A stretch of DNA of 64,000 nt from Limnothrix sp. BL-A-16 (GTDB lineage: Bacteria; Cyanobacteriota; Cyanobacteriia; CACIAM-69d). The notes beneath the pieces are model-generated. The model was given only the letters and a program-made list of their open reading frames with translations. It was not told the origin of the DNA and did not search any database. Every line of letters begins with the position of its first letter. Within the stretch, counting starts at the first letter, position 1. Shown here in pieces: positions 7,966 through 12,787 of the stretch. The stretch is from contig CP166615.1 of assembly GCA_041937175.2 (NCBI GenBank), positions 32,001-96,000 on the forward strand, given 5' to 3'. The translations under genes were made by a program, and so were the position numbers.

Positions 7966-8652
7966 ATGCTGCCATCCTTCCTAGAATCATTGCCCAACGC
8001 TGACGAACTCCCCGATTCTTGCGATATTCCCGTGGATAACGAAGAACAAAATTTTATTCCCAACGTCCTCTTGTTCCTGCTGGAATACATTTGGAAGCAC
8101 CGGGAAGACTGGTTTTTTGCGGTTGATATGGGGGTTTACCACGCCACGGGGCCTCATCCGAAAGTGCCGGTGATTCCCGATGGCTTTTTGAGCCTGGGGG
8201 TCGATCGCCGCAAGAATGGTAAACCGCGCCGCAGCTACATCACCTGGACGGAAAACAACATTCCACCGATTTTGGCCCTGGAGGTGGTTTCCTACACACC
8301 GGGTGAAGAGTATGACGAAAAAATGGCAATTTACGCCCGACTGGGGGTGTTGTATTACGTGATCTACAATCCCGAATTTTGGCGGCGGGATGGTCACTTG
8401 CCCTTAGAGGTTTACAAGCTAGTGGAGGGAACCTATCAACTTCAGGTGGGTGAACCCTGCTGGATGCCGGAAATTGGCTTGGGAATCGGGCGCGATCGCC
8501 TCATCGATGACCCATTCGATCGCGAAGTGCTCACCTGGTACGACGCGCAGGGACAACGCTATCGTAGCGAGGCCGAGGTAGAGCGCGATCGAGCCGATCG
8601 CTTGGCCGCGCGGTTGCGGGAGTTGGGGATTGATCCAGAGGCGATCGAGTAG
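7966..8652 (+). CDS. Uma2 family (DUF820) putative restriction endonuclease, copy 1
   Basis: DNEEQ..., VIPDGFLSLGV, LALEVVS...EYDEKMAIYARLGVLYYVIYNP and the C-terminal RLRELGIDPE tail. Confidence 0.9.
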   Translation: MLPSFLESLPNADELPDSCDIPVDNEEQNFIPNVLLFLLEYIWKHREDWFFAVDMGVYHATGPHPKVPVIPDGFLSLGVDRRKNGKPRRSYITWTENNIPPILALEVVSYTPGEEYDEKMAIYARLGVLYYVIYNPEFWRRDGHLPLEVYKLVEGTYQLQVGEPCWMPEIGLGIGRDRLIDDPFDREVLTWYDAQGQRYRSEAEVERDRADRLAARLRELGIDPEAIE

Positions 8653-8693: not shown

Positions 8694-9299
8694 TTAAAGC
8701 GTTGAGCGGCTGGCGCGATCGCATTGCTGCAAGAGGTGGTGCAACGCGCCCAATAATTCAGCCGGGTTGCGATTGGAATATAGGCCGGTTTCATAGACCT
8801 GGCCCGACCGATCGAGCCGATAAAACCGCCACCCATCGCCGTTGGTGACAATTCCCAACACCTCAATGGGGCGATCGCCGTTGCAATCTTGGCAGGCTTT
8901 CATTTCCACTAAGCATTGGGCTAATCCTTGCTCAAAGTCATCTTTTTTGGCTTCGACAATACACAGGAAGGGAGCCGCCACATAGTCTCGGCGCTCTGTA
9001 ATTAAGTAATCGACATTGCCGGTGACTTGTGCGGTTTCTAGCTTGACTCCTTTCCAGATTTTGAGATGTGCTAGGTCGGTGATTGCTTCTTCGCAAAAGG
9101 CATCAATCACCAGTTCTTTCGATTTTTCGCAGTAGCGCAGGTCAAAGTGCGCTTGGAGGCGGCGCAGGCGTTCCTGAAAGAAGGGGCTAGGCGATCGGGG
9201 TTGGCTTTCCAGTTCCCACAATTTCAGTTCGGTTAGGTTGAGATATTGATAAGCTTCTGCCAGGGCAAAGCTGGAGAAATTTTTGCGTTTTTTGATCAT
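8694..9299 (-). CDS. PD-(D/E)XK nuclease-like protein (HsdR-N-like fold)
   Basis: VDYL...CIVEAKK...GLAQC...GIVTNG..WRF motif pattern; ATG at 9299. Confidence 0.7.
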   Translation of the reverse strand: MIKKRKNFSSFALAEAYQYLNLTELKLWELESQPRSPSPFFQERLRRLQAHFDLRYCEKSKELVIDAFCEEAITDLAHLKIWKGVKLETAQVTGNVDYLITERRDYVAAPFLCIVEAKKDDFEQGLAQCLVEMKACQDCNGDRPIEVLGIVTNGDGWRFYRLDRSGQVYETGLYSNRNPAELLGALHHLLQQCDRASRSTL

Positions 9300-9348
9300 T
9301 GACCAAAATCTCTGAATTCCAGAAGTCCTTACCATTATCAATCATCCC

Positions 9349-9526
9349 GTAGGGTGCATGGGAGCAATCTCGAATTGTTATGAAATGTGCGGCTTCGTCT
9401 CCCATGCACCGTGGGTTGGGGCAACACAACCGATCGAAAATTATCGGTTTGTTGCGGTGGATTGCGGTGCATGGGAGATGAATGGAAATTGTCATTGCCT
9501 CCCATGCGTTCTCCCATGCGCCCTAC
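9349..9526. repeat. GTAG-headed REP-doublet/REPIN-like element
   Basis: Ends GTAGGGTGCATGGGAG and CTCCCATGCGCCCTAC are inverted; an internal inverted pair CTCCCATGCACC / GGTGCATGGGAG is also present. Confidence 0.7.
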
Positions 9527-9612
9527 CCGTGAAAAAAAATTGACCGCGCAGAGCGTGGGGTAAAGCAGAAGGGAAAAGAGGGAAAGAAGCGTAAAAGGGA
9601 AAAGAGTCCTGG

Positions 9613-11448
9613 CTAGGGCAAAGCGACAACCCGAAACCCAACGTGGCCGTAGATAACGTCGCGATTGACAGCCCACCACCCATAGCGATGCGCAGAGCGG
9701 CAGCCCAACGGAAAGTAGCTCCAAGAACCACCACGCAGGAGTTTGATTTGTTTATTGTCAAGATCAGTCAAATTCTGGAAAGCTCCATTGTCTATTTGTC
9801 CGCTTTCTCGAAATTGACTTATAAATAGTTGTTCATGTTTTAAATTGTCAAACCAAGGATGACCATTAACCGGTGCATTTTGATAGGTATTATGCCAATC
9901 ATCCAGACACCATTCCCACACATTCCCGTGCATCTCCTGCAAGCCAAAATCATTGGACGGGAAGCGACCAACCGGCGTGGTTCCAACACCGAAGGCTTGG
10001 CCATAGTGCGCTAAATCGTGGCTCAGGTTATTACCAAAATGAAACCGAGTCGTTGTGCCAGCGCGGCAAGCATATTCCCATTCGGCCTCGCTGGGCAGTC
10101 GGTAGCGTCGTCCCGTTCGCTGCCAGAGCCGCGCACAGAACTCCATCGCTTCAAACCAGTTCACCTGCTCCACCGGTCGATCATCGCCCTTGAAATAAGC
10201 AGGGTCAGGCTCAAGATCTCGGCAAACCTTGGGCCAGGCTGCCACGGCCCGCCACTGAGCCTGCGTGACAGGAAAGCGCCCCATATCAAACGCTGGCATA
10301 TCCACCCAATGTTGCGGCCGTTCATCTGGACTGGAACTCTCCTCCGACTCGGGCGATCCCATCAGAAACCGCCCTGCCGGAATCGGCAACAGTTCCAACA
10401 GTACCCCGCCGCCCAAATCCTCCACGATCGTCTGGGGCTTTGCTGGCTCCCTGTTCACCGGCTCCCCATGCTCAACAACTGGCTCAACCCGCTTCGGACT
10501 AGCAGGCACAACAACCGGCGACGGCGAGGCGTTGTGTTGTTTGCTCCGAAGTCGGAATAACGCCTCAAAACACTGGCGGCCCAACTTCCCCGCCGAGGCA
10601 ATATTGATCCGAATCCAGAGCTGTTCCGCGAGCTGCAAATCGCCCTCAAGTTCCGCCTGAAAAGCATCCGCCCGTAACTCTGCCCAGTCTCCCGGCTCCG
10701 ATTGGTGCGGAAACAAAATCAGGTGCGACTTGCGGATCGGCTCCACCACCGTATGCGGCGTTTGCCGCCGATCGCGCCCCACCAACTGCGGCACGCGATC
10801 GACCAAATAGCGATCCAAACTCGCCACCGTCGCATAGCCCCGCTGACTGCGAAACGCCTCCAACAGCGCATGGGTAAACGCCCCATGCTGCAATTCTTCT
10901 AGCTCATAGGACGACTCATAGCGACTGCAAGAAGCAATACTCACCACCCCCTTGAGCCGGCCCTGGTTCGCCGTGTCTTCGCCAACGCCCGCCACCCCCT
11001 TGGCCCCAGTCGATCGCCCCTCATCCCGACAGGCATCCAACAACAGCACCACATTGTCCGCACCGCACCGCCGCAACTGCTCCACCACGTAGGACACGCG
11101 GATCCCCGTTTCGGCCACGCTCATCGGCGAAGCTTCCATGGGCATCAGATAATCGCGCCCTTCCGCGTCCAACATTCCGTGGCCACTGAAGAAAAACCAA
11201 AAGTTGTCGCCCGCCGTCAGCTTGCGGTTGGCGGCAATTTGGCCCAGCAGTTCAATCACATTGGCCCGGGTCGGTTGCCGCAACCGATCGCCCTGCTGAG
11301 AGTCAAACAACCGCACAAATTCAAAGCCGATCGACTGCCAAAACGCCGCCATTTCCTGGGCATCGCGCTCGGCATATTTCAACGGCGGTAAGCGATCGTA
11401 TTGGTTCACCCCGATCGCGATCGCCCAGTTCCGCCCTTCAGCGCTCAT
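9613..11448 (-). CDS. Caspase-like peptidase C14 fused to an FGE-sulfatase (SUMF1-type C-type lectin fold) domain
   Basis: N-terminal AIAIGVNQY, FSGHG (catalytic His) and LDACR (catalytic Cys); C-terminal FLMGS, YRLPSEAEWEYACRAG, MHGNVWEWC, RGGSW and GFRVV. Confidence 0.93.
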   Translation of the reverse strand: MSAEGRNWAIAIGVNQYDRLPPLKYAERDAQEMAAFWQSIGFEFVRLFDSQQGDRLRQPTRANVIELLGQIAANRKLTAGDNFWFFFSGHGMLDAEGRDYLMPMEASPMSVAETGIRVSYVVEQLRRCGADNVVLLLDACRDEGRSTGAKGVAGVGEDTANQGRLKGVVSIASCSRYESSYELEELQHGAFTHALLEAFRSQRGYATVASLDRYLVDRVPQLVGRDRRQTPHTVVEPIRKSHLILFPHQSEPGDWAELRADAFQAELEGDLQLAEQLWIRINIASAGKLGRQCFEALFRLRSKQHNASPSPVVVPASPKRVEPVVEHGEPVNREPAKPQTIVEDLGGGVLLELLPIPAGRFLMGSPESEESSSPDERPQHWVDMPAFDMGRFPVTQAQWRAVAAWPKVCRDLEPDPAYFKGDDRPVEQVNWFEAMEFCARLWQRTGRRYRLPSEAEWEYACRAGTTTRFHFGNNLSHDLAHYGQAFGVGTTPVGRFPSNDFGLQEMHGNVWEWCLDDWHNTYQNAPVNGHPWFDNLKHEQLFISQFRESGQIDNGAFQNLTDLDNKQIKLLRGGSWSYFPLGCRSAHRYGWWAVNRDVIYGHVGFRVVALP

Positions 11449-11491
11449 GTATCCCAGGTTTGGTCATTGCTTTCACGCCACCATAACGGGT

Positions 11492-11956
11492 TTAGCCCTT
11501 CAGTTTCAATTCGATTGCGATCGTGCCCGTCATGCCGCCTTTCGCCCCCACCGCTTGGATGCCGATCGACCCCTCCGCCGAAATCCCCAACTGTAGCTGC
11601 ACCTTTTCGATCTCCAGGGTTTGCAAATCCGCCTGGGCGATCGCCCGTTGCATCAGGGTTTCAAACAACTTGATCTGCTGGGCCAACTGCCGCGCCGACA
11701 CATCCACCACCTTGGTGCTCACCCGATTGATGGTTTGGTCGATCTGGTCACGTATTTGACGATTTTGGGTTTCCTGCTGTTCATCGGGAAAATAGCTCAA
11801 ATTCCCCATAAAGTCCGAGATCACTCCTTTACGACCGGGTTCAGGATCAGCCGTTGTGAGATTCGCCGCCGGGGCGATCGGCTCATCCACCAACAGCACC
11901 AGCGACACAATGTCTTCAGACGAAGAGGATAAATTTTCAGGGCGATCGGGGGTCAT
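11492..11956 (-). CDS. Pepco/Trypco-like (peptidase co-occurring) small protein
   Basis: C-terminal helix plus beta-hairpin LEIEKVQLQLGISAEGSIGIQAVGAKGGMTGTIAIEL typical of Pepco/Trypco domains; 43 bp upstream of the caspase gene on the same strand; ATG at 11956. Confidence 0.7.
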   Translation of the reverse strand: MTPDRPENLSSSSEDIVSLVLLVDEPIAPAANLTTADPEPGRKGVISDFMGNLSYFPDEQQETQNRQIRDQIDQTINRVSTKVVDVSARQLAQQIKLFETLMQRAIAQADLQTLEIEKVQLQLGISAEGSIGIQAVGAKGGMTGTIAIELKLKG

Positions 11957-12073: not shown

Positions 12074-12787
12074 GTGGATCCACTGTCCCCCGTTGACGAG
12101 TTAATCGATGCCGACGATACCCTTGTCGATAACGAAGACCAATTTTTTATTCCCACTGTGTTGTTGATGTCGTTGAACTACCTCTGGCGACATCGGGAAG
12201 ATTGGTTTTTCTCGGGCAATATGGGCATTTATCACATCACGGGTTCTAATCCGTGCATTCCGGTGGTTCCAAATGCCTTCTTGAGCATTGGGGTTGATCG
12301 CCGCAAAGATAGAAAATCACGCCGAAACTACGTTATTTGGACGGAAAACAACATTCCACCGATTTTCACCCTAGAGCTGGTGTCCCACAAGCCGGGCGGG
12401 GAATATGACAGCAAAATGGCGATTTATGCCCGTTTAGGCGTGTTGTATTACGTGATCTATAACCCCGAATTTTGGCAGCGGGACGGTCATGATCCCTTTG
12501 AGGTTTACAAGTTGGTTGATGGGGCTTATCAACGGCAAAGTGGTGAACCCTGTTGGATGCCGGAAATTAGCTTAGGGATTGGGCGCGATCGCCTCATCGA
12601 TGACCCGTTCGATCGAGAAATTCTCACTTGGTATGACGCGCGGGGCCAACGCTATCGCAGCGAGGCGGAGGTGGAGCGCGATCGAGCGGCCGCCGAACGC
12701 CAACGGGCCGCAACCGAGCGCCAACGAGCCGATCGCCTGGCGGCCCGGCTGCGGGAGTTGGGGATTGATCCTGAGGCGATCGGGTAG
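12074..12787 (+). CDS. Uma2 family endonuclease, copy 2 (paralog of 7966-8652; altered start)
   Basis: Near-identical C-terminal half to copy 1; in-frame TGA at 12065 just upstream of the GTG at 12074. Confidence 0.8.
   Translation: MDPLSPVDELIDADDTLVDNEDQFFIPTVLLMSLNYLWRHREDWFFSGNMGIYHITGSNPCIPVVPNAFLSIGVDRRKDRKSRRNYVIWTENNIPPIFTLELVSHKPGGEYDSKMAIYARLGVLYYVIYNPEFWQRDGHDPFEVYKLVDGAYQRQSGEPCWMPEISLGIGRDRLIDDPFDREILTWYDARGQRYRSEAEVERDRAAAERQRAATERQRADRLAARLRELGIDPEAIG

Follow-up and report, generated by a model that had tools for sequence, protein, structure and literature searches.

A locus of Limnothrix sp. BL-A-16 that bears on what the lectin tips diversified by diversity-generating retroelements (DGRs) trigger in cyanobacteria was analysed in a stretch of 64,000 nucleotides (nt), further referred to as the window (contig CP166615.1 of assembly GCA_041937175.2, positions 32,001 to 96,000 of the forward strand; coordinates below count from the first letter of the window). 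The locus holds three co-oriented open reading frames (ORFs) on the minus strand, 11956..11492, 11448..9613 and 9335 or 9299..8694, coding for proteins of 154 (from the ATG), 611 and 213 or 201 amino acids, respectively. An initial annotation, made from the letters alone, had read these genes as a candidate three-gene conflict module of a Pepco-like protein, a caspase with a lectin-like FGE domain and a nuclease. Its description of the layout, with a small gene 43 bp upstream of the caspase, agrees with the ORF calls and with the 43 nt measured between the Pepco stop codon and the caspase ATG.

On balance, it is probable that the first two genes constitute a two-gene module, in which a lectin-tipped caspase senses an invader and releases a pore-forming Pepco protein that kills the infected cell. 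Binding of a ligand by the lectin tip would likely cluster the caspase, which would then process itself after Lys150 and cut Pepco after Lys43. Without its N-terminal strand, Pepco is predicted to escape autoinhibition, with a core of helix and β-meander set free. This core may form or open a membrane barrel, and the killing of the cell would likely serve anti-phage defence. The features of the module that carry this reading are the following.

11492..11956, minus strand: Pepco (PF24393) protein, putative effector, 154 amino acids; from profile, alignment, model and Atlas neighbours
11825..11836, minus strand: predicted caspase cleavage site Gly41-Arg42-Lys43/Gly44 in Pepco; from column conservation
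9613..11448, minus strand: orthocaspase-linker-FGE/C-type lectin protein, 611 amino acids; Peptidase_C14 at residues 6-234, FGE at residues 353-608
11029..11181, minus strand: catalytic dyad His90 (11179-11181) and Cys140 (11029-11031), with Asp138 (11035-11037) and Asp29 (11362-11364) as likely acidic S1-pocket residues
10996..11007, minus strand: predicted self-processing site Gly148-Ala149-Lys150/Gly151 in the caspase linker after DACR, resembling the Pepco site

The Pepco-caspase gene pair

The 154-amino acid protein matches the Pfam model Pepco (PF24393) at 47.5 bits (cut-off 27) over residues 69-151, and its neighbours in the Atlas are Pepco clusters (0.90-0.91), while its match to Trypco1 stays under the cut-off (E 0.029). 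The identity proposed for this protein in the initial annotation thus held in the profile search. The 611-amino acid protein matches Peptidase_C14 (E 2.6e-23) and FGE-sulfatase (E 1.2e-46). Its His-Gly and Asp-Ala-Cys-Arg motifs, noticed before, are indeed intact (His90 in SGHG, Cys140 in DACR), and both catalytic residues are invariant in all 55 aligned partner caspases. The same holds for Asp29 and Asp138, the former aligning with the Asp of the metacaspase C-x-x-D motif. The nearest solved relatives of the caspase are metacaspases and MALT1. Non-animal C14 proteases cleave after Arg or Lys by means of two Asp residues, according to the available parts of two papers (PMC5756287, PMC6426788).

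Of the 201 genomes searched in the class, 81 contain Pepco, at 112 listed places. Of these, 80 were retrieved, mostly the best-scoring ones, representing 67 genomes and 41 genera; all counts out of 80 refer to this set. A caspase gene lies on the same strand within 700 nt downstream of Pepco in 56 of the 80 loci, and within 100 nt in 51; FGE is present on 31 of the 56 downstream caspases. In ten further loci the caspase is located upstream. The remaining 14 have no caspase in the retrieved stretch, three of them lying less than 200 nt from a contig end. Conservation of the gene neighbourhood, which had been put forward as a check on the pairing, is thus found for Pepco and caspase. The closest orthologues with a name are assigned to Limnothrix by their sources. 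Pepco was not found in either of two same-genus genomes. In one same-genus genome the syntenic slot contains an internally deleted Pepco gene, a caspase reduced to its first codons, and XisH/XisI where the nuclease would be, which indicates that Pepco and caspase were lost together and that the third position is exchangeable. A scan of metagenomes with Pepco as query returned no loci. With the caspase-FGE protein as query, 79 mostly distant FGE loci were obtained; four of these were caspase-FGE by profile, two with Pepco and none with the nuclease.

A conserved basic site in the Pepco linker

In the window Pepco, an N-terminal strand (residues 16-22) is followed by an acidic linker, the basic site, a strand, an amphipathic helix (residues 88-108) and a Gly-rich meander of three strands. 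PF24393 proteins share this opening. Their hydrophobic first strand leads into an acidic linker rich in indels, in which 28 % of the residues ahead of the site are acidic and 5 % basic, and G-x-[R/K]-small follows. The strand columns of the family alternate between hydrophobic and charged residues, and the helix is amphipathic. In an AlphaFold2 model of a typical family member (mean predicted local distance difference test score, pLDDT, 74) the N-terminal strand is part of the sheet (block pLDDT 80) and the basic site lies in a disordered loop. This model had no Foldseek matches among solved folds at E 0.001 and a best VIA-align Z of 3.3, and a sequence search of the PDB gave no match; these blank searches do not demonstrate a new fold.

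Conservation of the basic site was studied in 79 Pepco rows, the set that remained after removal of two GUN4 fusions. Arg or Lys occupies the site column in 74 of the 79 rows, and Gly stands two positions before it in 67. Searched without alignment, the site motif is present in 67 of 79 proteins, against 27.7 ± 4.2 in 1000 shuffles of the linker (maximum 43). In a held-out set the motif was found in 87 of 124 proteins, against 39.4 ± 4.6 after shuffling (maximum 55), the profile that ranked this set having itself contained the motif. The held-out set consisted of 150 library representatives minus 22 that were at least 70 % identical to the first set and four without the N-terminus. The site column is entirely charged in the pooled alignment of 232 rows. 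Lys43-Gly44 is identical in all seven close orthologues, with flanks that are 65-70 % identical and a core after the site that is 98 % identical. A site with Arg or Lys in Pepco fits the Arg/Lys-specific orthocaspases. From these sequence patterns, activation of Pepco by N-terminal cleavage is predicted.

The choice between Lys and Arg at the Pepco site matches that in the linker of the partner caspase in 44 of 54 pairs (one row having no site by the rule), under a rule for picking sites that was composed after the sequences had been seen. Compared column by column in the alignment, 78 % of 37 rows agree, versus 31-57 % at six other Lys/Arg columns, and this agreement persists after correction for overall Lys use. 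These figures are suggestive of co-variation between the two sites.

Apart from the limits just given for the ranking profile and the picking rule, several observations weigh against the proposed cleavage and pore. The co-variation was not significant on phylogenetically independent pairs, an underpowered comparison of five pairs (2.3 same, 0.4 opposite). The basic-small pair in the linker of 54 of the 55 partner caspases, from which self-processing is predicted, was counted with a permissive pattern and no shuffled linkers for comparison. Basic residues are also kept at the C-terminus of the Pepco family, past the last strand, and provide an alternative cut site. At the position of a pocket Cys of TbMC2, the loss of which lowers metacaspase activity, the window caspase carries Ala26. 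The window Pepco is divergent (18-33 % identical to the wider family), has lost several lumen-side charges and is poorly modelled by AlphaFold2 (pLDDT 48), for which reason its model was kept out of the fold search. An hhalign comparison of the Pepco family with nine Trypco2 rows gave a probability of 4.5 %, which does not establish homology. A pore function of the window family, as known for SsPepco, the characterised member, would lean on the grouping of Pepco, Trypco1 and Trypco2 by Evans et al. (2025; PMC12642450, available in part) and on the sequence pattern. Pepco is fused to a C-terminal GUN4 domain beside an Hpt-domain gene in two of the 80 loci (L137:5226-5843 and L138:5287-5913). 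Finally, nine loci hold a Pepco with the basic site and no caspase in the retrieved stretch (L065, L066, L075, L102, L103, L105, L107, L112 and L118); two of them are near a contig end and several lie beside phosphonate ABC and EF-G genes. The Pepco of these loci may be cut in trans.

The lectin tip and its retroelement history

Two features of the 3' end of the caspase gene concern the DGR.

9643..9720, minus strand: DGR-type variable region (VR) of the lectin tip, residues 577-602; from orthologue divergence and A-biased mismatches to foreign template repeats (TRs)
9520..9612, minus strand: DGR-target 3' signal, consisting of a conserved 3' flank, a pyrimidine tract, a short GC hairpin (9544-9560, one stem mismatch) and a T run

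Among six orthologues (two of eight rows were omitted as partial or distant) mean identity is 43 % in the VR, versus 96 % in the caspase domain and 83 % in the remainder of the FGE domain. Compared with nine foreign TR-like sequences, the window VR differs at 17-23 of the 26-33 template-A sites, versus 19-31 % of the other sites. The layout of the 3' signal is the same behind four verified DGR targets and in the relatives G001 and G003. Adjacent A-specific TR/VR pairs were found beside Pepco-caspase-FGE in nine of the 80 loci, four of which have Avd and RT in the retrieved stretch; a tenth match, being a non-FGE repeat, was not counted. Four relatives display the order Pepco, caspase-FGE, Avd, reverse transcriptase (RT), TR, with 19 of 20, 19 of 20, 14 of 15 and 11 of 12 mismatches at template A. 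Judged by these sequence marks, the lectin tip is one that was diversified by a DGR in the past of the lineage.

The window genome (100 % complete, two contigs) gave no matches to RVT_1. DGR RT proteins were used as extra queries because RVT_1 gave no matches in five relatives too, and they also found nothing in the window genome. The Avd profile had no matches in this genome; a cognate TR was found neither there by blastn nor in the genome-contig library by exact search with one pattern. An RT is present in one of eight family genomes (G007), the retrieved contig of which gave no matching template. Contigs from four metagenome runs, each of a different study, carry the window allele with zero to two differences; in two of the runs the match spans the whole VR and in the other two a portion of it. 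Other alleles are present as well, the window itself may derive from one of the runs, and rare variants do not show up in contigs. The VR is likely an orphaned target, and the sensor fixed at one specificity, as no retroelement was found in the genome. Of the earlier suggestion that the caspase is possibly DGR-diversified, past DGR marks on the tip stand; present diversification does not, as no RT, Avd or TR was found in this genome.

Some further observations concern these targets. The length of the VR differs by three codons among orthologues (P0008-P0015), which suggests slippage in an AAC run of the template or the use of two templates. Template-only cassettes are seen at L059, L097, L098, L101 and L117, with a TR a few hundred bases behind caspase-FGE and no RT motif detected in the stretch. 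Outside the window, at G000:C1:227884-235579, two tandem FGE genes with VR-like tips precede a 1652-amino acid frame with a caspase-like N-terminus; these FGE genes are further orphan targets, also without TR or RT.

Alternative explanations

Unlikely, though to be taken seriously, is that Pepco serves the caspase as an adaptor or an intrinsic inhibitor, with the basic site of Pepco docking in the active site or being cut to release the brake, and with the caspase killing via other proteins without any pore. Dore et al. call Trypco1/2 adapter domains in the available part of their paper (PMC10907252), and the GUN4 fusions, the weak hhalign result for Trypco2 and the resemblance of the Pepco site to the caspase's own linker are in line with it. 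Against this stand the strict alternation of hydrophobic and charged residues and the amphipathic helix, which agree with the barrel reported by Evans et al. (PMC12642450, as far as available), and the near-identity of the core after the site among the seven orthologues.

Slightly less probable still is that cut and pore are real but belong to a host programme, such as stress-induced death or filament breakage, instead of serving against phages. Vallota-Eastman et al. (PMC7517822, available in part) interpret cyanobacterial DGR targets, orthocaspases included, as regulatory, and the window allele has been maintained in several lake metagenomes, unlike what a fast arms race predicts. The patchy presence of Pepco in the class, with none found in the two same-genus genomes searched, the loss in a congener, the variable chromosomal slot and the targeting by DGRs fit conflict systems instead; moreover, the characterised Pepco works with the phage-sensing Avs4 (PMC12642450, available part).

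It is improbable that the Pepco pore is activated as in SsPepco, here by trimming of the few residues at the C-terminus, or that it needs no cleavage, with the basic site near the N-terminus being incidental. Activation of SsPepco is C-terminal and position-exact according to the available text of PMC12642450, and most of the family has basic residues after the last strand. The window Pepco, however, has four residues beyond the last strand motif, and the N-terminal site is kept far above the shuffle expectation in an otherwise indel-rich linker. Across PF24393 the tail past this motif has a median of six residues (82 of 84 rows; in 102 held-out rows, five exceed 15), so that a long C-terminal tail is not a feature of the family.

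A very small chance is given to the module being a decaying relic in this lineage, no longer functional after loss of the retroelement. The failure to find an RT, Avd or TR, the mismatch in the target hairpin, the divergence of Pepco and the destruction of the module in a congener would agree with decay, but both frames are intact, and caspase domain and Pepco core are 96 and 98 % identical among orthologues whose linkers drift. The two-gene module with N-terminal release of Pepco thus remains the reading to which we incline.

Neighbouring genes and the genomic slot

The surroundings of the module comprise the following features.

8694..9335, minus strand: PD-(D/E)XK nuclease-fold protein, HsdR-N-like, of a multi-copy family; likely outside the system
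9340..9530, strand not assigned: dispersed hairpin repeat resembling a miniature inverted-repeat transposable element, between caspase and nuclease and outside the module; fold z -5.8 (9340-9480)
7966..8652, plus strand: Uma2-family gene, left border of the variable slot
12074..12787, plus strand: Uma2-family paralogue, right border of the variable slot

The third protein has no match in Pfam or NCBIfam. It matches the PADLOC model PD_DExK at 7e-39, which agrees with the nuclease-like gene placed behind the caspase in the initial annotation, and it is near HsdR-N-like clusters (19 % of members, nearest named cluster). The family occurs in two of the 80 Pepco loci, never in an adjacent position. 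At eight distinct sites of close nuclease homologues, Pepco, caspase and FGE were found in none within 1.5-4 kb, and the window genome harbours seven to nine paralogues elsewhere. The nuclease is likely separate cargo in a variable slot between the two Uma2 genes. The proposal of a three-gene module thus gives way to one of two genes, and the caveat attached to it, that the nuclease may be unrelated cargo, is supported by the loci read in both directions. That this protein is a second effector, as its strand, its place next in line and the listing of the family as CRISPR-associated by PADLOC might suggest, is scarcely credible and largely refuted by context, given the counts above, the XisH/XisI genes in the slot of the congener and the hairpin repeat that separates it from the caspase.

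The spacing of about 280-310 nt between the caspase stop and the nuclease contains the DGR-type 3' signal and the hairpin repeat. This repeat has five matches of at least 80 nt in the genome, the window copy (9340-9530) included. Further copies are seen in congeners, and in G002 one copy again adjoins a nuclease homologue. The two Uma2 paralogues are 72 % identical over 300 nt, and the content of the slot between them varies among congeners. Upstream of the module lies a gene that, from reading of its sequence, we take to be dnaK-like. Scans for promoters and terminators stayed at chance level.

Implications and comparison with known systems

If the proposed module holds, it would give the lectin tips a direct read-out: the substrate is named, the bond to be cut is predicted (Lys43-Gly44) and the cell would die, which would make ligand screens with different variable regions possible. 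In addition, the caspase-linked members of the most abundant protease-effector family would be activated at the end opposite to that of the only tested member. As the orphaned copy shows, a sensor of this kind can outlast its retroelement. More tentatively, the Pepco fold could have a second mode of activation, resembling that of gasdermins, in caspase-linked Pepco: its N-terminal strand would be removed at a G-x-[R/K] site co-evolving with the self-cleavage site of the caspase, and the protein would thereby be uncaged. In many cyanobacteria this mode would be wired to a DGR-hypermutated lectin, so that two genes would make up a complete sensor-to-pore pathway whose receptor is somatically diversified.

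The papers discussed below were available in part, and statements on them are limited to these parts. Pepco is associated with proteases of the serine or cysteine type that are fused to sensors, FGE among them, and cyanobacteria are named (Evans et al. 2025, preprint; PMC12642450). FGE or C-type lectin (CLec) DGR targets fused to caspases have been described and proposed to act in invader sensing or regulation (Kaur 2020, 2021; Dore 2024; Vallota-Eastman 2020; PMC7159879, PMC8195603, PMC10907252, PMC7517822). The combination is therefore of a known kind, since these studies describe its parts. The initial annotation knew of no characterised system pairing Pepco with a DGR-type caspase. That view fails in so far as Pepco-protease-FGE associations (PMC12642450) and caspase-CLec DGR targets (PMC7517822) are in print; it stands in so far as no tested caspase-linked Pepco was found. 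The pairing of Pepco with proteases is published, and the front-end cut site is unreported in the literature searched. This search found neither a test of a caspase-linked Pepco nor a front-end cut; the supplementary figures of Evans et al. and Nicastro et al. (2023) fell outside it, and either may mention an N-terminal site. The supplementary spreadsheet of Evans et al. gave no Pepco matches. The role of Pepco as likely substrate and death effector of the caspase, suggested earlier, finds support in Evans et al. (PMC12642450) together with the conserved basic site.

The cyanobacterial CLec/FGE-orthocaspase DGR targets (PMC7517822, PMC10907252, PMC7159879, PMC8195603) share with the window protein the C-terminal VR, the 3' flank with pyrimidine tract and GC hairpin, and the A-biased divergence. 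Unlike these targets, the window tip has no RT, Avd or TR found anywhere in the genome and is an orphan, not a remote target. The available descriptions of caspase-CLec targets in these four papers name no Pepco partner. Like the orthocaspases, metacaspases and MALT1 (C14B), the window caspase has the His-Cys dyad and two acidic pocket residues; it differs from them in the Ala at the position of the pocket Cys, the FGE fusion and a dedicated, predicted substrate encoded next to it.

Two caspase-effector modules described by Evans et al. (PMC12642450) resemble the proposed one. EACC1 is freed by a caspase that removes an N-terminal fragment pairing with C-terminal strands, the predicted cut being after Asp, and LcHydrolase is cleaved at R-G sites by a caspase; a co-occurrence of EACC1 caspases with DGRs is also stated. 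The likeness of the EACC1-caspase and α/β-hydrolase-caspase modules to the proposed one lies in the release of an effector by N-terminal removal (EACC1), in R-G cutting (LcHydrolase) and in the link to DGRs. In contrast to the EACC1 modules, the window effector belongs to PF24393 and has no EACC1 match, and the window caspase scores 80.6 against the EACC1-type model NF047832, under its cut-off of 140.

The closest characterised system is SsPepco, encoded beside a trypsin-Avs4 protein, which forms a β-barrel pore of 9-10 subunits and becomes toxic after loss of a 2 kDa C-terminal tail (~20 residues) past Ile97 (PMC12642450). In our material, trypsin-adjacent Trypco2 proteins of the same phylum begin with a helix and end in a tail, and from the residue numbers in the available text SsPepco would be of this Trypco2-like type. 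The Trypco2 genes of L145-L149 code for long helical C-terminal extensions, possibly a further activation type, and lie upstream of proteins that look CHAT-like by eye. In SsPepco-SsAvs4 and in the window pair alike, a small Pepco gene immediately precedes the gene of a protease-sensor fusion, and Pepco has an amphipathic helix and alternating β-strands. SsPepco is trypsin-linked and carries a C-terminal tail, whereas the window family has a C14 partner, no such tail, and an added N-terminal strand with an acidic linker holding the Arg/Lys site; the sensor is a STAND ATPase in the former system and a DGR-type lectin in the window.

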